DNA of 64,000 bases from an uncultured Gemmatimonadales bacterium (GTDB lineage: Bacteria; Gemmatimonadota; Gemmatimonadetes; Longimicrobiales; RSA9): the NCBI GenBank assembly GCA_963798845.1, contig CAWCUS010000006.1, positions 320,001 to 384,000 of the forward strand. The letters run 5' to 3'. The number at the start of each line of letters is the position of its first letter. Within the stretch, counting starts at the first letter, position 1. This document shows positions 11,961 through 36,162 of this stretch, piece by piece. A program made the position numbers and the translations under genes. The notes beneath the pieces were generated by a model that was given only the letters and a program-made list of their open reading frames with translations, was not told the DNA's origin and did not search any database.

Positions 11961-12253
11961 TCGCTTGATTTGGAGTGAGTGCGGGCGGCCTTCACAGACT
12001 CGCCCGTCAATTCTTGCTAATGGCTCGAATGCCCGCAAGTTCCACGTTTGCCGATGCTTCCGACTCCCGCCTGCCGCGCCACACCCTTGACAGTACGACC
12101 TATCATGACCACCTTACGCGTGACCTCCCAGTCAGCCTTGTGACACCCGGCGGCGCGGGTTTTGCCGGCGGCTTCCCGCCGGCTTGGTATCCGTCCGCTG
12201 GTGTTCCTTTGTCGGAGACGGTCGAGAACGTGGAAGGCACGACGACGAAGTCG

Positions 12254-13024
12254 ATGGGCACCTTCAACGTGTCCGGAGAGGCAGAGGCGCTCATTCGCTG
12301 CCTCACGGGGGTCGTCCATGCCTCCGTTCACGCCGGCATCGGCGGCATCGAGGCCATCCGCGTCACGGCGGCCGACGAGATGAGCGCCCGCGCCATGCCC
12401 GACCGGATCCGCTCCGCCCTACTCGCCGGCCTCGCCACCCCTGTGCTCCCCGGGCGCATTTTCGTCCGCACGTTACCCCAAACTGCCAGTGATTCCGAGC
12501 AGGGCGACGACGCGGCCGCCACACGCTCACCGGGACCCTGTGACCGTGGACCCCGCCTCGTCGCGACGTCCACCCTCCTTGGACAGGACCCGGCGACGGC
12601 CGCATTTCCGGAGCTCGGCGGGATCGCCACGGAAGTCATGCGCAGGGCACCAGACTATATCGCGCGGCCACACCTCGTCGCCGTGGACCTCGATCGCCCC
12701 GGTGACGGACGCGTCGTCTGCTGCGTTTCCGTCGCCTACGGCGCCCACGTCCACCGCGCCGAGGCCACGGCCATCGATCTCCCCGGGGCCGCAGCACAGG
12801 CCGCCGCACAGGCCACCGTCGGCGCCCTCGTCGACGCCGGCCTCGAAGGCCTCGAGCTCGGCGGGCTCCGGGAGGTCGAGATCGCCGGACGCGACTACGT
12901 CCTCGTCGCTCTCCGGCGCACCGACACCTGTCCAAGACACCGCTCCGGGAGCGCACTGGTCCTGGAATCACCGGAGCGAGCCGCCGCTCGAGCAACCGTG
13001 GCCGCGGCCAACGAGATCCTTTGA
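12254..13024 (+). CDS. Hypothetical protein
   Basis: Host-like codon use; mixed alpha/beta protein with two regions separated by a linker; start uncertain. Confidence 0.7.
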   Translation: MGTFNVSGEAEALIRCLTGVVHASVHAGIGGIEAIRVTAADEMSARAMPDRIRSALLAGLATPVLPGRIFVRTLPQTASDSEQGDDAAATRSPGPCDRGPRLVATSTLLGQDPATAAFPELGGIATEVMRRAPDYIARPHLVAVDLDRPGDGRVVCCVSVAYGAHVHRAEATAIDLPGAAAQAAAQATVGALVDAGLEGLELGGLREVEIAGRDYVLVALRRTDTCPRHRSGSALVLESPERAAARATVAAANEIL

Positions 13025-13213
13025 CCGCCGCCGAGGCGACAGCACGGAACAACGCACCTGAACTCGATGCCTACGGGCTTATAGAGAGTCAGCAAGGAGA
13101 CAATCTGAACTAACGGAGCCCCCCGCCGGCGGAATTCGTCACAACTCAGCGGAGCCTGCAGTACCTAGCGGAGCGCTCGCGGCCGAATAGCGGACAACGG
13201 CCGACGCCACGCT

Positions 13214-13225
13214 GAAAGGAGGTGA
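13214..13225 (+). promoter_or_regulatory. Extended Shine-Dalgarno GAAAGGAGGTGA for the small ORF at 13232
   Basis: Near-perfect complement of the 16S rRNA 3' end; GGAGG ends 9 nt before ATG. Confidence 0.85.
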
Positions 13226-13231
13226 CGCTGC

Positions 13232-13303
13232 ATGACTGACATGATCTTCCGGATGATCGAGGCCGTCGCCGCGCTCGTTAGCGCTGGACACCTCGTCATC
13301 TAG
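13232..13303 (+). CDS. Unannotated 23-aa hydrophobic peptide MTDMIFRMIEAVAALVSAGHLVI
   Basis: Strong SD, ATG 13232, TAG 13301-13303; below the ORF-track size cutoff; directly upstream of HD-GYP gene. Confidence 0.72.
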   Translation: MTDMIFRMIEAVAALVSAGHLVI

Positions 13304-13332
13304 TTATGAAAGCGGGGGCTCCGCTCCTTTCT

Positions 13333-14673
13333 ATGAAGTCGCTAAACACGTACTTCGCCTCCGTCTGTGTGGCCGCAGTTGTATTTGCGGCCACCTTGGA
13401 CTGGAGCATCTTACTCGGCCTGTCAAGCCGAGACTGGACGGGACTGGGGGCATTTCTGTTCCTCGCGGTCTTGTCACAAGCTCTGGCGGTTGATTCCACG
13501 CTCGGAGCGAACAAACCCGTCAAATCGTCTATCGCGTTTCTCCCCCTGCTTGCGTTGGCCGTGGTGATGCCGGTACCTGCCGTCGTCTTGGCGACCGCAA
13601 GTATGACGGCCGTGCATGAAGTCTTCTTTCGGGAACGAAATTGGCTTCGAGCCGCGTTCAACACGGCACAAACCGGCATTTCGTACGGGGTCGCAGCAGT
13701 TGTCTTTGGAGTGATTGCTCGAGCTTCGGGCCTGAGCCCAGAACTTGGTGCACCCGTTGACGTTGCCAATCTGTTCTTCCCGTTCTACGGATTGGCAGTC
13801 ACGTTTTTCCTTCTGAACCTCCTTTTCGTCAGTGCTGGCGTCGCAATACGCCAATCGCAGCCGATTCAAGCAGTGCTGCAAGAGGCAATAGGCCGCGGCG
13901 GCGGCAATCTTGTCTACGATTTGTTGGCCAGCCCGATCGCTCTCTTCGCGGCGTATTTGTACGAAGCTTTCTATATGGGCGGCTTGTTCATTGCGGTCCT
14001 ACCTTTCTTTATCATCAGGCATTCGTACCTATCCGCGATTCAGCTCAAACAGGCAAATAACGATCTATTGCACGTATTGGTCAAAGCCATTGAGACGCGC
14101 GACCCCTACACCTCAGGGCATTCGCTGCGAGTGTCGACGCTGGCGCAGATGATTGCTGCGGACTGGGGGCTGCGACCTGGTGCAATCGAGAATGTGAAGA
14201 CGGCGGCATTGCTCCACGACATCGGGAAGATTGATGCGCTCTACGCCGAGATCATCGCCAAGAGAGCGGAACTCACGGAAGAAGAACGCAGGGTCATTCG
14301 AACCCACGCTACCAAAGGTGCAGACCTTCTCCAATCCCTCACTTCACTCGACAAAGATGTGATCGTTGGAGTTCGCCACCATCACGAGCATTACAATGGG
14401 TCAGGCTACCCTGAGGGGCTAAACGGAAAGAGCATTCCGCTCGCCGGTCGCATCATCATGATTTGTGACTCCGTGGACGCGATGCTCTCTGACCGTCCCT
14501 ATCGTAACGCCCTCCCGGTTAGCGCGGTCCGCGCGGAATTGCGCCGATGTGCGGGGACCCAGTTCGATCCGGAACTGGTCGAGACAATCCTCAGGAACAA
14601 TACTCTTGAGCGTGCAGAAGTTCTCGTAGACCGCGGTGGGGCCAAGGCCGCTCTAAAGGCGATCGCCGTCTAG
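13333..14673 (+). CDS. Membrane-anchored HD-GYP cyclic-dinucleotide phosphodiesterase (multi-TM N-terminal sensor, MASE9-like)
   Basis: ~7-8 hydrophobic segments, then RDPYTSGHS, LLHDIGKI, HHHEHYNGSGYPEGL, CDSVDAM, DRPYR; alternative start 13306. Confidence 0.92.
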   Translation: MKSLNTYFASVCVAAVVFAATLDWSILLGLSSRDWTGLGAFLFLAVLSQALAVDSTLGANKPVKSSIAFLPLLALAVVMPVPAVVLATASMTAVHEVFFRERNWLRAAFNTAQTGISYGVAAVVFGVIARASGLSPELGAPVDVANLFFPFYGLAVTFFLLNLLFVSAGVAIRQSQPIQAVLQEAIGRGGGNLVYDLLASPIALFAAYLYEAFYMGGLFIAVLPFFIIRHSYLSAIQLKQANNDLLHVLVKAIETRDPYTSGHSLRVSTLAQMIAADWGLRPGAIENVKTAALLHDIGKIDALYAEIIAKRAELTEEERRVIRTHATKGADLLQSLTSLDKDVIVGVRHHHEHYNGSGYPEGLNGKSIPLAGRIIMICDSVDAMLSDRPYRNALPVSAVRAELRRCAGTQFDPELVETILRNNTLERAEVLVDRGGAKAALKAIAV

Positions 14674-14881
14674 ATCGTCCCGACAAGCCATTGCGCTGAG
14701 TTCTCTCCGCCCCACTGTTGAAGGGGATGCAGCGCCAGACCAATGAGGACCAAGTCCATGCCGGATTTGTAACACCTCGGTCTTCAAGCCTCTCCCAACG
14801 AAACCCGGGGGCATCAATGCTGCGCAATTGCCGTTTGCTTCAGCTCAAGCTCAGAAGTTGTTGTCGGTAAGCGCCACAGCC

Positions 14882-17800
14882 ATGGACGCTGAGACCACAA
14901 GCCTTCTGATGCTGGGTCCACCGAGCATACAGACGGGGTCGAATTCTGTGCGTCTGTCAGTTAAGGAAATTGCCGTTCTAATATTTCTCGCCGAAGAAGG
15001 GCCGCAGTTGAGAGAGACCATCTCTCAACTACTCTGGCGTGGCAATCCTGCAACTGCCCGACACAGCCTTAGCCAGGCCATCTACAGCATTCGCCGGAAA
15101 CTTGGGCAATCCAGTATCACAGGTGATGCTAATCGGATCGCTCTCGACCGAATCTCCACCGACTTGGAGGAGTTCCGGGTTTCTATTCAACGGGAGGATT
15201 GGCGATCCGCCTCCCTCCTTTTCCGCGGTGAAGTTGGAAGTGGCATAGAGAACTCCCTCCCAGACCAGTTCCAAGATTGGCTTTGGATCACTCGCACGGC
15301 ATACCGGCACCAAGCGGATATCGTCCTGGAAGGGCTCCAACTGGACGGCCTGCGCCACGAGACGGAACGCTTGGCTACCATTCTGCTGCGGAGTGACTCT
15401 TCTGACGAGAATGCACAGCGGACGCTCAGGTGGGCCACCTCGCGATCAGTGGAGTTGGATTCGGATGCGGATCAGAATCGGGAAGCGACACTAGGGCGGC
15501 GTCTACCGTTTGTGGGACGTGCCGGCGAAATGGCGAGCTTGGCGCACCTCGCAGGTGAGTGTGCGCGCGGACGTTTTGCCGGCGTCGCAATTCTCGGTGA
15601 AGCAGGAGTCGGCAAGACAGCTCTGTTGAACCGATTTGCGCGCCTCCAAGCACTGAAAGGTGCCAAAGTTCTGTCGGCCACGGCATACGACGCCGAAAGC
15701 AAGCTACCTTTCGGCGTCGTCACGCAGTGGGCTCGTGACGCCATGCAAGGTGCCGGAGGCGATGACAACGGTGTGATTGCTCCAGAGGAAGGCTTGCGGC
15801 GTCTGTTCGCGGGGGACCCACACGAGCAGTCAGGCGTCGAGGATTGGGACCGATTCCGCTTCTTGGAGGCTTTAAGGGGGCAGGCGTTGTCGTTGTGCCG
15901 AGACCGCCTGGTTCTACTGATTGTGGACGATGCACAATTCGCCGACGCCGCGTCTTTGGGTTTCTTACACCACATGGCCCGAAGGAGCCCAAGCGCTCAG
16001 ATTATGGTGGTCGCTGCTGTACGAACCAATGGGAATGACACTAACACGACTCTCTCTGAATGGCTTCCCTTTGAACGCGTATTGCTGCAACCGTTGTCAG
16101 AACAGCACGTAGCGGAGATGCTTAAGCGGATTGACGGCAGTGACGACCAGGGTCCTTTCGATCCCGACCTCATATACCAGAAGACGGCCGGCAACCCTCT
16201 CTTGATCGCGTCAGTTGTCTTTGGCCGCCAGAACGCCAATGGAGCAGCATCGCCATCGGCCGCCACCGAATTTTTCCTCCCCCACATACGCGGCCTAAGT
16301 CGTGCTGGTCGTCGGCTCTTGGCGGCGCTATCGGTCGCTGGGGAACCCATAGCCCTGACGCTGGCAGCGCAGATAGCGGGGCTGAGTCCAGCGGCGGCCG
16401 CGTCTGAAGCCGCAGAAGAATTGGAACGAGCTGGGCTAGCGTCGCGTGACCCAGAAGGCATTCGCCCGAGACATAACCTCGTTGCCAATGCAGCGCTAAG
16501 CGAGATTACCCCCGCCGAACGGAGGGGGCTGTACGGACGCGCGGCCAACATCTATGCGAGACTGGAACGCGCATCCCCGGCAATGCTAGCAATCCGCCAC
16601 GACATCGCTGGAGACCGATCGTCGGCATTTCAGGCCGCCCTTGGCGCCGCCAGCACGAGCCGAGGAGCTCCACGCCCATCGTGAGCAGGAGTTCTTCCTG
16701 AAGCTCGCCTTGCACAACGCGCCAGACGGAGAGGAAGCCGGTGTGTTGCGTTCAGGTAGGCGATCTGTTGGTCAGGTCTGAGCGCCGGCGAGAAGCTCAG
16801 AGATCTCGACGCAATGGATGGGCACGTGTTGTCGGACGGAACTATCGCCAAGAATGAGGCGTTGGAGCTCCTGCTGGCTTTGTCATCCGCCAAAGACGAC
16901 GGCATAATTGATCGTGCGCTCCCCACAATTGCGGAGTTAAGCAAGCGCCGCCCTTGCGTGGACGGCCGAGCTGTACATTGAATTGGGAGCTGTCGCTCAC
17001 GATTTTCCGCATGGAAGCGGCGGTCGCTGCTGCGCGATGCTGCCTTAAGGCGTGCAGCGGATATCCCCAGACAGCGGCGTTGGCCGCATTTCGGCCAAGG
17101 CGTGACCATTGTGGGCACATACGTCGGCTACGAAAAGGCCTGAACGAAATCAAGAAATGGATGAAGACGGCCGAAGATCGCTCCCGAAAACAACGCAGCA
17201 TTACTCATCTCCCGCGGTCAATTGTGCATGTTTGCGCAGGCCGCCTTATGGAAGCTGAAAAGGCCCTATCCGAAGCATTGGGCCTGGTTGAGCAGATTGG
17301 GCTTTATGGTCAGCTCTTTTCGGTCCATAACAATATCGGGGTTTGTTACATGGAGAGCGGGAAAATCTCACACGCCCTCACCCATTTCCAGCATGCCTTT
17401 GCGCTTGCGCGAGGAAGGCATGGCCCAGGACACGCGCCAATCGTTGACGACAATTACGCGCAGTTCCTTTTTCATCGGGGGGACCACGAGGAAGCGATCA
17501 CCTATTGTCGCTCAGCATTGGCTTCGGGAGGAGATCACTTCAGTAGGGGATTTCCTCTCCCAGACACGCCATTGTCGGCCTTTCTTGCCTCCAGCTTGGG
17601 CGGATTGCGGCGGCGCAGGAAACCCGCCGAGAAATTGAGATCACGCTCGCTGGGCAGGAATATCGAGGCGGCGACATCTCCTACGTGGAGATCTTTCTCG
17701 CGCGGATGCTGATGCTGGAGGGGCGGGCGGACGAGGCGAAGGCGCGGCTGGCGGCAGCCATCCGCGCCTATGCGCCCCGCGAGGAGCTGGCGTCCGCCCG

Positions 17801-17957
17801 CATGGAGCTGGAGCTGTCCCGGATCGAGCTGCGCGATCAGCCTGCGGCGGCGGCCGAGCGTGCGGAGAGAGTCCTGGACCGGCTGCAGGGATCCGGCGCG
17901 GTTCCGCTCATCGAGACGGCGGAGAGCCTGATCCACCGCGCCCTCAGCCGGGTCTAG
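14882..17957 (+). pseudogene. wHTH-BTAD-AAA(STAND-like)-TPR transcriptional regulator, frameshifted in its 3' third (pseudogene or assembly indels)
   Basis: RETISQLLW...ARHSLSQAIYSIRRKLG, PFVGRAGEM, GEAGVGKT, LLIVDDAQFAD, TAGNPL open to 16684; TPR fragments (VHNNIGVCY) in other frames 16660-17957. Confidence 0.8.
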
Positions 17958-18712
17958 AGCAGCCCTTCTCGACGTAGCCAGGCCTCGACGATCCACTCCC
18001 AGCCCAGGTGATCGCGGACGAAGGAGGGGCGGTATCCGATCAGCCGGTTCATGGAGTTGCTCATCGTGAACCCGTCCGGGTACCCGAACCGCGCGGCGAC
18101 GCGGTTGATGTTGGCTCGGGTGTTCTGCAGGTGGATGGACGCATGCAGCAGTCGGGCGAATTGCAGCCAGTGGGACGGCACCGGCAGTCCGCGCTCGCGG
18201 AAGAAGCGGCCAAGCGTCCTGCGGGACTGGCAGAGCTCGCCCGCCAGACGCTCGATACTGTGCACCTGAGGCGCCCGGGCGAAGATCGTGAAGATCCGGT
18301 CCCGCACATCGGCCGCCGCCACTACGCCGGCGAGGTCCAGGTAGTCCGCCACGGCCAGCGGCAGCGAGCCCGGCGGGGTGCCCAGGAGCGTGCGAAGCGC
18401 AGCCATCGTTCCCCGTCCGCCGGTCGGCAGGACGCCTCGCGGCCGGAGCTCAGGGACGTGCCGCAGCACCGGCACGACCGGAGCAATGTCCTCGGGCTCC
18501 GGCAAGACCACGAACAGGGGCAGTGATCTCGGCTTTTCCACGACCCAGTCGAGCTCGGCCCACAGCGCTCCCACGGCTTTCATGAACCACACGACCGACG
18601 CTCCCGGCTGCGGCGCCGGGTCCGCCGGGATCGCCGGCTCGATCCGCTCGAAGGTATAGTACGGAGGCCGGAACAGGTGGAGACCGGACGGGATCTGCGA
18701 CTGGGCATTCAT
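17954..18712 (-). CDS. AraC-type HTH transcriptional regulator
   Basis: SIERLAGELCQSRRTLGRFF...PSHWLQFARLL...INRVAARFGYPDGFTMS; AGGAGG RBS before ATG 18712. Confidence 0.82.
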   Translation of the reverse strand: MNAQSQIPSGLHLFRPPYYTFERIEPAIPADPAPQPGASVVWFMKAVGALWAELDWVVEKPRSLPLFVVLPEPEDIAPVVPVLRHVPELRPRGVLPTGGRGTMAALRTLLGTPPGSLPLAVADYLDLAGVVAAADVRDRIFTIFARAPQVHSIERLAGELCQSRRTLGRFFRERGLPVPSHWLQFARLLHASIHLQNTRANINRVAARFGYPDGFTMSNSMNRLIGYRPSFVRDHLGWEWIVEAWLRREGLL

Positions 18713-18900
18713 CGTGTCCTCCTGGGGTGGCGTCGCTGGGGCTGCCCGCATATTCGCGCGCGGGTATCATCGGGGTGTCAAAGCCCAGCGGCCGCGCCTC
18801 CGCTCCATCCTTGACGCCGACGCGGGGATCGCCGACCGGAGAAATGTGGAACGGTTCTTCCCACATCCATTTCCGGATCGACGGCCTTCATGGAGGCGCG

Positions 18901-34130: not shown

Positions 34131-36026
34131 TCAGGCGTCCGGCACCGTTTCCATCCCGCCCTGTACCCGTACGGTTCGGCGCACCAGAGCGCCGAGGGTC
34201 CCCTGCAGCTCGGCGTGGCTGATGCCGGACGGGAAGCAGACGTCGGCGCCAGTCTCGAGCAAGCGGAGCCGGAGCTTCACGGTTTCGGCGTTCACCACCA
34301 CGATCGGGAGGCGCCGGAGAGACGGATCCGCCCGCAGATCCCGGATCAGGGACACAACCCAGTCCACGCCCTCTCCAGCTGACAGGACGAGCGCCCCCAC
34401 GGGTACGCGCAGCAGCCGCTCCCGCGCCCGATCCAGGTCCGCGGCCACTTCCGCCAGGTACCCCGCCGAGCAGAGGCGAACCGCCGTCGCGACGGCTTCG
34501 GCCCGGAACGGGTTGACCAGCAGGATCTGGTGGCGTGCGGGGGATTCCAGACGCGCAGGAGCGCGCCGGGCCACCACTTCGAGCAGCGCGTCCACCACCG
34601 CCGGATCGTAGCGTCGCCCGGCCTCGCCACGCAGCTCTTCGGCCGCTTCCGTCGGCCTGACCGGCAGCCGGTACGGACGCGGCGAGATCATGGCCACGAA
34701 TGAGTCCACCACCGACAGGATCCGCGCGGAAAGGGGGATGTCGAGGCCGGCCAGACCGTTCGGGTAGCCCGCACCGTCCCATCGCTCGTGGTGGTGGCGA
34801 ACGGCCGATCGCACGCCGGCGGGGAGCGGCACGTCGTCGAGGAGGTGGAGGGCCACATTCACGTGGCCTTCGATGCGGCGCCGTTCCTCGGGGGTACGCG
34901 CGCGGCGTGCAGAGGCGATCAGCCGTCCTCCCACGGCCAGGCGCGCGAGGTCCCGCAGCAGCGCCGCGAGAGCGACTGCGTCCCGCTCCTCCCTGCGCAG
35001 CCCCAGCTCTTCGGCGACCCGGCCGGCGAGGAGCCGGACGAGGCTGCTCCCGCCGCGGAAGAACGGGTCGCGGTATTCCAGGAGACCCACCAGCCGATCC
35101 GTGATTTCGAGCAGGGCGGCCGCGTCACCACCCTCGGCTGCAGGGGCGGCGGGCACTGGAGCCACCGCCGACGATCGGTCGGCTGGCGGAGCTGCCGGGG
35201 ACGCGATTTCTGCGGTACCCGCCGACGCGGGTTCTGTCGCGGCTGTGCCTGCGCCATCGGCAGCGGTGGGCGTGGCGGATGCGGTCCCGTCGGCGGCCTC
35301 CGGCCGCCAGCCGAGCATATGGGAAAGCCGCTCGCGGATACCGGGCGCCGTGGCTTCGGATGCACCACGCGCGGGAGCGATGGCTTCGAGCTTGGCCAGG
35401 AGGCGCGGATCACCGGGCGTGCGGTCGAGGAGCGACCGGTACACCGACGCGGCCTCCTCGCGGAGGCCCTGGCGCTCGTACAGCTCGGCCATGGTCTCCG
35501 TCACCACCTCCCGGGGCAGTCCTCCCGCCGGGGGCGGACTCGCTTCCGTGGTGACAGATGGCCGCGCCTCGTCAGGAGCGGGCGCGTCCCCGTCGGCCGT
35601 TCCGAGGGCGGACGCCGCGACCAGACGCTCGAGGTCACGGACTCGCGCTTCCACCTCGGCCGAATCCGTCAGCCGGTCCAGCCGGCGGAAACGCTCCAGC
35701 CCTTCGTCGAGGCGTCCTTGCGCCACCGCCAGCTGGCCCAGGTGCTGGAGCGCCACCTGGTTGTCCGGGTCCAGCTCCAGCACACGCCGGAATGCGCCCT
35801 CCGCCTCTTCTTCCCTGCCCTGGTCCAGATGCAGCCGGCCCAGCACCACGTACGCACTCGAGTAGTCCGAATGGCGGAGCAGCCCTGCACGCAGGAGCGT
35901 TTCCGCCTGCGCGTAGCGGCCCGCGCGGCGGTACGCGTCCGCGAGGTGGGGGAAAACGAGACCGTCTGGGTGAGCGGCGTGAAGCAGCTCGAGGCGGCTG
36001 ATCTCGTCGCGGTTGTTTGACGCCAT
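34131..36026 (-). CDS. TPR + degenerate HD-GYP + REC-like domain protein
   Basis: N-terminal TPRs; RDPFFRGGS, LLRDL (HD lost), HHHERWDGAGYP, RPYR; C-terminal receiver-like fold. Confidence 0.85.
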   Translation of the reverse strand: MASNNRDEISRLELLHAAHPDGLVFPHLADAYRRAGRYAQAETLLRAGLLRHSDYSSAYVVLGRLHLDQGREEEAEGAFRRVLELDPDNQVALQHLGQLAVAQGRLDEGLERFRRLDRLTDSAEVEARVRDLERLVAASALGTADGDAPAPDEARPSVTTEASPPPAGGLPREVVTETMAELYERQGLREEAASVYRSLLDRTPGDPRLLAKLEAIAPARGASEATAPGIRERLSHMLGWRPEAADGTASATPTAADGAGTAATEPASAGTAEIASPAAPPADRSSAVAPVPAAPAAEGGDAAALLEITDRLVGLLEYRDPFFRGGSSLVRLLAGRVAEELGLRREERDAVALAALLRDLARLAVGGRLIASARRARTPEERRRIEGHVNVALHLLDDVPLPAGVRSAVRHHHERWDGAGYPNGLAGLDIPLSARILSVVDSFVAMISPRPYRLPVRPTEAAEELRGEAGRRYDPAVVDALLEVVARRAPARLESPARHQILLVNPFRAEAVATAVRLCSAGYLAEVAADLDRARERLLRVPVGALVLSAGEGVDWVVSLIRDLRADPSLRRLPIVVVNAETVKLRLRLLETGADVCFPSGISHAELQGTLGALVRRTVRVQGGMETVPDA

Positions 36027-36162
36027 GTACCGGGCCGGTGGACGAACGCAGGTGTCGTTCGCCCGGGAATATGCGCGGGCCCCGAGTCTGTCCACAAGCG
36101 CGGCGGCCCGGATCAGCCGCCGTTCATTCGCGCGGTTCGGCGGAGTGGGGCGGCGGGTTGTG

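Follow-up and report, generated by a model that had tools for sequence, protein, structure and literature searches.

Introduction

In several well-known bacterial systems (the ermC/ermB, cat and cmlA leaders, tnaC and speFL), translation of a short leader open reading frame (ORF) controls a downstream ribosome-binding site that is held in an RNA helix. Translational coupling can also act through long-distance RNA pairing, as between the coat and replicase cistrons of MS2, and small membrane proteins are known to modulate sensors and transporters directly (MgrB and SafA acting on PhoQ, AcrZ on AcrB, and KdpF on KdpABC). Control of the enzymes of cyclic di-GMP (c-di-GMP) is commonly ascribed to their sensor domains and to transcription. 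In this work we analyse a 64,000-nucleotide stretch of DNA (the window) from an uncultured Gemmatimonadales bacterium (assembly GCA_963798845.1, contig CAWCUS010000006.1, positions 320,001 to 384,000 of the forward strand), in which a 23-codon ORF (the small ORF), set within a structured RNA leader, precedes the gene for a predicted c-di-GMP phosphodiesterase that carries a membrane domain, MASE9, and an HD-GYP catalytic domain.

This arrangement resembles the leader-ORF systems in that a short ORF, led by a Shine-Dalgarno sequence (SD), stands just upstream of a gene whose initiation region is buried in RNA structure, with a ribosome positioned to remodel it. It differs from them in its helix, which is long-range, being formed by a segment ~110-150 nt upstream of the ORF and by the spacer that follows the stop codon, and which encloses the whole ORF instead of using the ORF's own coding sequence. 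It also differs in its target (a c-di-GMP phosphodiesterase, and not a resistance or catabolic gene) and in its peptide, an amphipathic helix conserved over its full length for which no inducer is known. With MS2 the locus would share the principle that translation of the upstream cistron opens a long-range helix blocking the downstream start; however, the upstream cistron is here a 23-codon micro-gene, chromosomal and conserved across a phylum. As with the small membrane modulators, the product is a tiny hydrophobic protein whose gene adjoins that of a polytopic membrane protein and which tracks the membrane domain of the latter, but the peptide described here is shorter (19-25 residues), mostly lacks flanking basic residues and is a candidate partner. 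To our knowledge, none of the four modulator systems named above involves a MASE9 domain or an HD-GYP enzyme.

MASE9 has been proposed to bind a ligand within the membrane, and has no known ligand (preprint 10.1101/2021.11.05.467447). Based on the comparison of many homologous loci, we find that the small ORF is conserved together with the HD-GYP gene and that a long-range helix covers the start of the latter. The peptide and the RNA leader probably control, and perhaps partner, the MASE9-HD-GYP enzyme, because both recur before the HD-GYP gene across Gemmatimonadota. An initial annotation of the window had read these same genes as a quorum-like module, an interpretation which we weigh below together with several others.

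Results

A micro-gene is conserved upstream of the HD-GYP gene

The SD of the small ORF (GAAAGGAGGTGA) is near-perfect, among the strongest possible, and is followed after 6 nt by the ATG at 13232 (the coordinates of all features are collected in Table 1). The initial annotation had singled out this ORF from the window alone and had proposed to look for it upstream of homologous genes, where it does indeed recur. Relatives of the HD-GYP protein are encoded by 564 stretches of public species-representative genomes; the best 80 of these 564 were analysed, and 75 of the 80 are assessable, since contig ends exclude L055, L071, L092, L108 and L115. In 74 of the 75 assessable loci (73 called by script, plus L109, identified by eye), the orthologue is preceded by a hydrophobic ORF of 19-25 codons with an SD, a recurrence well beyond what chance would give. 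Additionally, such an ORF (20-26 codons) is present at 11/11 loci with a full-length orthologue in the 40 nearest genomes, ending there ~28-37 nt ahead of the HD-GYP start, and in a second set, from the same family, it was called by script in 24 of 25 loci, with the end of the ORF visible by eye in L034. These last two sets include loci of genomes G017 and G020, which are flagged as unpublished, and no claim is made on these alone. The relatives of the window genome are metagenome-assembled Gemmatimonadota, with Longimicrobiales or Gemmatimonadales in the titles of their records.

The association reaches far into the phylum. An even sample of Gemmatimonadota yielded the MASE9 part in 54 of 301 genomes, spread over 37 of 128 genera, and among the most distant orthologues (27-35% identity in MASE9) an SD-led hydrophobic ORF, 16-27 codons long, occupies the same place in 11 of 12 cases; the sequences of these distant peptides are very divergent, yet they carry a tryptophan at or adjoining the C-terminus. 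In the genome of the window the leader is single-copy: a search by nhmmer with the leader profile found its own locus only (E 9e-13, the next match having E 1.6), and a regular-expression search of the same genome for three spaced AGCGGA motifs returned unrelated tandem repeats only. On these comparative grounds, the small ORF is a genuine, conserved gene linked to the HD-GYP sensor gene. An origin as a detached or frame-shifted piece of the HD-GYP N-terminus was discarded: the N-termini of the orthologues begin past the spacer, and in all loci the small ORF has its own SD and lies in another frame.

Two in-frame ATGs lie 2 nt (13306) and 29 nt (13333) past the small-ORF stop, and the N-termini of the orthologues align with the ATG at 13333, which is the most likely start of the HD-GYP gene. 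The encoded protein matches MASE9 (PF20972, 44.1 bits against a cut-off of 24.3, residues 49-231) as well as HD_5 (E 4.4e-33) and HD, and its HDxGK and HHExxxGxGYP motifs (H295, D296, G298, K299, H350, H351, E352, G358, Y359 and P360) are invariant in 20 orthologues. Carrying both the domain and the metal- and substrate-binding motifs of the HD-GYP class, it is a predicted phosphodiesterase, and the earlier description of a membrane HD-GYP protein with intact catalytic motifs, starting 2-29 nt downstream of the small ORF, agrees with this. In the window, the G+C fraction is 0.564 in this gene and 0.597 in the regulator gene that follows it, against 0.69 in the flanks. A recent island was considered for the low-GC stretch 13000-17500 and rejected, as low G+C is a persistent trait of the family, the HD-GYP gene falling below its flank in all 54 loci with enough sequence (mean 0.562 vs 0.681). 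The window holds a second, unrelated HD-GYP gene, at ~34131-36095 on the minus strand (a 654-aa ORF, with the HD-GYP match at 34578-35099).

The small ORF evolves as a coding sequence

The coding test was carried out on 72 unique nucleotide versions of the small ORF, compared in 123 pairs. The differences at codon positions 1, 2 and 3 number 487, 195 and 991, and the proportions of synonymous and nonsynonymous differences (pS and pN) are 0.439 and 0.125 (pN/pS 0.28), with the limit that the pairs were picked by small-ORF similarity, which biases both proportions downward. The +1 frame is closed by a stop codon in 71 of the 72 versions and the +2 frame in 42, whereas the lengths of the ORF itself stay within 19-25 codons, with a mode of 23 (34/72); the start codon is ATG in 38 versions, GTG in 31 and TTG in 3. 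Selection on the peptide, which the initial annotation had suggested as a check, is by these measures purifying.

If the ORF were untranslated, its apparent conservation would have to come from RNA-level constraints in a leader resembling a riboswitch. Structure is clearly present in the leader, and the pS of the small ORF (0.44, against 0.73-0.78 in the adjacent gene) is low enough to fit such constraints. We nevertheless consider this explanation highly improbable, given that third-position changes are five times as many as second-position ones, that the frame is open in 74/75 loci and the +1 frame almost always closed, that a strong SD stands at a fixed distance from the start codon, that a start codon is always present even though ATG, GTG and TTG vary, and that neither consensus pairing within the ORF nor an Rfam match was found.

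The encoded peptides (19-25 residues, with a grand average of hydropathy of 1.3 and a net charge of mostly -1) have the periodicity of an amphipathic helix. Their hydrophobic moment is maximal at 100 degrees per residue (0.33, vs <=0.21 at the other angles between 80 and 180), and 57 of 67 unique peptides are more amphipathic than 95% of their own shuffles (z 2.25 for the peptide of the window). The polar face of the helix comprises positions 3, 7, 10, 14 and 17. The majority consensus is MFSSLFDFxGAxLSLLxxGxxxW, in which one glycine, corresponding to Gly19 of the window peptide, is nearly invariant, and conservation reaches the N-terminus (alignment A4). Tryptophan stands at or adjoining the C-terminus in 51 of the 72 versions. 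The peptides of the window clade (M-T/S-D-x-I-F/L-R-...-A-G-H-L-x-x) have diverged and lost this terminal tryptophan, the window peptide itself included. None of eight peptides was on record in an exact look-up in ~15 billion predicted proteins, and Pfam and NCBIfam gave no family for the five peptides queried.

A helix of ~23 residues without a signal peptide would also suit an independent product (a toxin, a pore former or a surfactant-like peptide) that merely shares the HD-GYP transcript, and the phenol-soluble modulins and the type I toxins resemble such a peptide. The strict single-copy linkage to one gene family across the phylum speaks against this origin, as do the embedding of the ORF in the helix that would control HD-GYP translation and the anionic, not cationic, character of the peptide, and we hold it to be very improbable.

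When 567 pairs of equal length are compared without this filter, the peptide has a mean amino-acid identity of 0.365, the MASE9 part one of 0.406 and the HD-GYP part one of 0.573, the peptide thus evolving at about the rate of MASE9. Peptide identity correlates better with that of MASE9 (r 0.71) than with that of the HD-GYP domain (r 0.56), a co-variation of peptide and sensor which the initial annotation had suggested testing, with the reservation that the correlation is confounded by shared descent; it is suggestive of co-evolution between peptide and MASE9.

A long-range helix buries the HD-GYP start

The layout of the leader was drawn from an alignment of 69 leaders (A2) and from inspection of the 260 nt upstream, and its elements come in a fixed order. 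The 5' arm of a long-range helix, P1, with the pattern (A)AGGAG..CCCCC(UCGGUCUGCC), is followed by two or three single-stranded GAGCG(G/A)A repeats, then by a hairpin, P2 (variable stem, with (U)AGCGGA in the loop), by CGACNCC, by the SD AAAGGAGGUGA and by the small ORF; after the latter comes the 3' arm of P1, (GGCAGACCGA)GGGGG(CUCC...), which extends up to the HD-GYP ATG.

In the window, RNAduplex pairs 13079-13126 with 13312-13336 at -34.1 kcal/mol (z -3.8), and the minimum free energy (MFE) fold of 13078-13340 holds both P1 and P2 (-106.9 kcal/mol, z -3.16). Over the 69 loci, RNAduplex gives P1 a mean of -39.6 kcal/mol and a mean z of -3.9 against shuffled 3' arms, with individual z values from 0 to -7.3 and with L074 (whose spacer is 5 nt) as an outlier; the duplex stretches from a point -3 to +6 nt from the small-ORF stop to the HD-GYP ATG. 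When applied to the MAFFT alignment A2 (450 columns), RNAalifold recovers only P2, because MAFFT misaligns the arms of P1, and P1 was therefore tested sequence by sequence, with RNAduplex and arm swapping. Cognate arms pair at -40.1 kcal/mol, vs -32.1 for non-cognate ones; 17 of 68 loci have a cognate arm that outdoes all of the 20 non-cognate arms set against it, and the median number of non-cognate arms doing better is 2.

The pairing, and not a particular sequence, appears to be maintained. Positions in the P1 register are occupied by several types of Watson-Crick or wobble pair (for instance UA 33, GC 13, GU 6, AU 2), and L065 and L101 have compensated changes within the P1 core. In L050 (7105-7361) the two arms are swapped, with the G-run in the 5' arm and the C-run in the 3' arm, and the HD-GYP gene is there without any G-rich SD, which argues that the helix, and not the G-run, is the conserved feature. 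P2 has compensatory changes in four pairs in the RNAalifold consensus of A2 (such as GC 51/AU 17/UA 1, GC 39/AU 24/GU 4 and CG 24/UA 23). According to these predictions and comparisons, a strong, covarying helix encloses the initiation region of the HD-GYP gene, and the 3' strand of this helix begins at the small-ORF stop. The initial annotation missed this helix, and it is because the ORF lies within it that a cis-acting translational gate is indicated first.

Among known RNA elements (Rfam, including the c-di-GMP riboswitches), 12800-13500 gave two matches at chance level, both with E > 7, and a promoter scan of 12900-14900 found no sigma-70-type site. CsrA was considered as a reader of the GGA repeats and set aside, as its family was not found in the genome of the window (96% complete), the controls being positive. 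In the window clade only, the 3' arm can form an alternative local hairpin of 6 bp (13311-13325), followed by CCTTTCTAT, which looks terminator-like; transcription attenuation was not adopted because this hairpin is confined to that clade. Eight loci (L068, L088, L091, L093, L099, L100, L103 and L110) have an extra GAGCG copy between the SD and the start of the small ORF (GGAGGTGAGCGCA), and a factor binding the repeats would there occlude small-ORF initiation, since the copy lies in the SD-to-start spacer. In the majority clade (L062, L064, L080, L084 and others), the last ~30 nt of the upstream gene, which encode ...LQATDRWVRG, form an almost perfect inverted repeat (GGCCACGGACC...GGGTCCGCGGCC), absent from the window; because the inverted repeat exists at the DNA level, the conserved tail of the upstream protein may reflect an RNA hairpin.

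The geometry of P1 also bears on our main competing explanation, in which the peptide is a purely cis-acting leader modelled on ermC, cat, tnaC and speFL. Its nascent chain would sense a metabolite or a condition and stall the ribosome at or near the stop codon, holding the 3' arm of P1 open and inducing HD-GYP, and the peptide, once released, would be functionless. P1 running from the small-ORF stop to the downstream ATG is consistent with this, and so are the narrow range of ORF lengths (a chain of ~23 residues being still inside the exit tunnel), the tryptophan at or near the end, retained even in the very divergent distant peptides, the purifying selection on the sequence, and the case of L050, where an HD-GYP gene devoid of a G-rich SD suggests dependence on an upstream ribosome. 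An amphipathic periodicity over the whole peptide is, however, not a known requirement of arrest peptides; besides, conservation extends to the N-terminus, the window clade keeps the ORF despite the loss of the terminal tryptophan, and the context suggests no inducer. A stalling leader therefore has a real chance of being the correct explanation, although we hold it as a minority view.

Neighbouring genes and the proposed peptide-regulator pair

The neighbourhood was studied by clustering the ORFs (blastp) of the 80 loci and the window, with counts limited to loci that have enough flank. The gene upstream of the leader (geneX) has no family in Pfam or NCBIfam; of the 67 loci with >=1.3 kb upstream, 63 have a gene of its cluster there. 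An AlphaFold2 model of one orthologue (L089:7012-7737; predicted local distance difference test score, pLDDT, 89) resembles in its N-domain the C-terminal domain (CTD) of cation diffusion facilitator (CDF) transporters (6vd9_A, Z 9.5, root mean square deviation (rmsd) 2.0, 68 residues aligned) and in its C-domain the regulatory domain of LeuA/citramalate synthase (3f6g_B, Z 9.8, rmsd 3.0, 109 aligned). Because the model has two ligand-sensing folds, geneX is a candidate trans-acting factor of the module.

Downstream of the HD-GYP gene, the initial annotation had placed a regulator with a winged helix-turn-helix (wHTH), BTAD, ATPase and TPR domains. The domains are there and the neighbour is a conserved one, which 58 of 61 loci have directly downstream (in convergent orientation in the majority clade, co-directional in the wider clade of the window), but the gene itself is broken in the window. 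Its family (Trans_reg_C, BTAD, AAA_16 and TPR; ~1,100 aa) has intact members in L119:5626-8769 (same genus, 1047 aa), L120:5439-8600 and L046, whereas in the window Trans_reg_C and AAA_16 are in the ORF 14828-16684 and the TPR pieces in other frames. Homology to the L119 orthologue runs across three frames (14909-17230, 16954-17526 and 17562-17945), with at least two frame hops and with five stops in the first frame (16682, 16757, 16979, 17141 and 17162), so that no single intact polypeptide is encoded and the regulator is a pseudogene in this genome. The AraC-type gene that was reported to converge on it is intact, and 43 of the 45 loci with >=6 kb downstream have a member of its cluster.

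The same annotation had seen in the peptide and the TPR regulator a quorum-like module, with peptide binding of the RRNPP kind. An exported quorum or identity peptide could in principle be bound by the TPR domain, or be sensed from outside by MASE9, and there are reasons to consider it: the regulator with TPR repeats is a near-constant neighbour (58/61), short hydrophobic peptides of ~22 residues serve as pheromones of Rgg/RRNPP regulators, and a short hydrophobic peptide gene adjoining a regulator with TPR-type repeats is also the arrangement of the SHP/Rgg and RRNPP pairs. The receptor class, however, is different, this regulator being a STAND NTPase with wHTH and BTAD domains, whereas RRNPP proteins combine a helix-turn-helix with TPR-like repeats and have no NTPase. 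The regulator is, moreover, dispensable in some lineages: in L039, L040 and L048 no trace of it was found within ~4.2 kb downstream, and leader, peptide and HD-GYP gene are kept, which argues that the function of the peptide is independent of the TPR regulator. A peptide/TPR quorum circuit is unlikely precisely because the regulator is a pseudogene here and was not found downstream in those three peptide-keeping loci. Additionally, the peptide has no signal-like basic N-terminus, its gene is wired through P1 to the HD-GYP start and not to the regulator, and the six neighbour families scanned against Pfam include no exporter, processing protease or oligopeptide permease (the clusters present in >=6 loci being only partly annotated). 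Taking both forms together, we judge such signalling to be improbable.

Table 1. Features of the locus in the window, with the evidence for each
Feature	Position	Strand	Description and evidence
geneX, upstream syntenic gene	11975-13024	+	true start uncertain, orthologue homology beginning near 12113; same blastp cluster
P1 5' arm	13079-13126	+	AUAGAG 13081-86, AAGGAG 13094-99 and GGAGCCCCCCGC 13115-26, with internal loop; RNAduplex and MFE fold
Two single-stranded AGCGGAGC repeats	13148-55, 13167-74	+	GAGCG(G/A)A columns with almost no variation among the 69 leaders of A2
Hairpin P2	13178-13206	+	CGGCCG 13180-85 pairs with CGGCCG 13198-203, third AGCGGA in loop 13189-94; RNAalifold and MFE
CGACGCC, candidate anti-SD	13202-08	+	follows P2; putative anti-SD role
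SD of the small ORF, GAAAGGAGGTGA	13214-13225	+	located in sequence; AAAGGAGGTGA conserved in leader alignment A2
Small ORF	13232-13303	+	ATG to TAG, 23 codons, amphipathic-helix micropeptide; conservation, coding signature, amphipathicity
P1 3' arm	13312-13336	+	GCGGGGGCUCC 13312-22, then GCUCCUUUCUAUGA; spans the G-run and the HD-GYP start codon
MASE9-HD-GYP c-di-GMP phosphodiesterase gene (predicted)	13333-14673	+	Pfam, NCBIfam, orthologue starts, invariant catalytic residues
wHTH-BTAD-AAA_16-TPR regulator (STAND, SARP/AfsR-like), disrupted	14828 to ~17950	+	Pfam and homology to intact orthologues
AraC-type (HTH_18) regulator gene, intact	17954-18751	-	Pfam; conserved neighbour

Discussion

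Starting from the observed conservation, coding signature and amphipathicity of the peptide, from P1 and its geometry, from P2 and from the synteny of the locus, we propose, with a probability of roughly 0.45, that a translated micropeptide gene in the leader gates the translation of the HD-GYP gene, and that the peptide is also a functional product, most likely a partner of MASE9. In this mechanism, P1 would lock the stretch from stop to start, including the G-rich ribosome-binding stretch and the HD-GYP ATG, and a ribosome that translates the small ORF and terminates at 13301-13303 would unwind the 3' arm. Because the terminating ribosome must unwind this arm, synthesis of the phosphodiesterase would require, and be proportional to, translation of the small ORF, the coupling being translational and operating through the melting of the helix. 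The three AGCGGA motifs, including the one in the P2 loop, and possibly an anti-SD probably regulate in their turn the initiation at the small ORF, so that a factor reading the repeats or P2 may act at the small-ORF SD.

As for the peptide, its full-length amphipathic periodicity, the purifying selection on it and its tracking of MASE9 suggest that it also works as a product. It may insert, as an amphipathic helix of ~23 residues, beside MASE9 and act as an intramembrane partner or modulator synthesised together with it, and binding to MASE9 is the second function that we prefer for it. This role fits the published proposal that MASE9 binds its ligand within the membrane (preprint 10.1101/2021.11.05.467447).

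Several observations weigh against gating by the micropeptide gene, against the partner role, or against both. We infer the coupling of HD-GYP synthesis to small-ORF translation from geometry alone, and the gap from stop to ATG (22-49 nt across loci) is long for classical termination-reinitiation. One locus, L044 (7779-7929; record labelled Chloroflexi), has a MASE9-HD-GYP gene without leader or small ORF, the regulator gene being still present downstream. On the side of the peptide, the choice of pairs affects pN and pS as stated, the low pS of the ORF fits RNA-level constraint as well, and the tryptophan at the C-terminus could equally mark a nascent-chain stalling signal. The peptide is, additionally, very short for a transmembrane helix, amphipathic and not uniformly hydrophobic, flanking basic residues are mostly absent and the N-terminus is not basic, and shared descent confounds its correlation with MASE9.

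A broader version of the gating proposal can be formulated, in which the micropeptide is an intramembrane ligand or subunit of the orphan MASE9 domain, the leader represents a new class of relay riboregulator, and the locus is a phylum-wide module of five genes (the ligand-binding geneX, the leader with its peptide, MASE9-HD-GYP, the STAND-TPR regulator and the AraC-like regulator). A factor that reads the AGCGGA repeats and the hairpin would set the translation of the micro-ORF, and this translation would both unlock the synthesis of the phosphodiesterase and supply its peptide partner in fixed stoichiometry. Taken with all of its parts, this version is doubtful.

Judged by analogy, the locus belongs to a known kind, in which a leader ORF controls a start enclosed in a helix, and adds to it a candidate partner of the small membrane-protein type. 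What is new is the long-range helix around an entire ORF, the phylum-wide family of amphipathic micropeptides, the element made of AGCGGA repeats and a hairpin, and the MASE9-HD-GYP enzyme as the target. No description of the module was found in the literature on MASE9, on leader peptides or small membrane proteins of HD-GYP enzymes, and on upstream ORFs in Gemmatimonadetes (the supplements of the MASE9 preprint, with Figure S5, lying outside this search).

That none of the eight peptides looked up is on record among ~15 billion predicted proteins shows how such small genes escape annotation. The AGCGGA-repeat/hairpin element, which has no counterpart in Rfam, implies an RNA-binding factor or a ligand in Gemmatimonadota, and the co-evolving, co-translated amphipathic micropeptide would be a concrete candidate ligand for the orphan MASE9 domain. 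If the proposed mechanism is true, the translation of a second-messenger phosphodiesterase would, throughout a whole phylum, be gated by a conserved micro-ORF together with a long-range helix.

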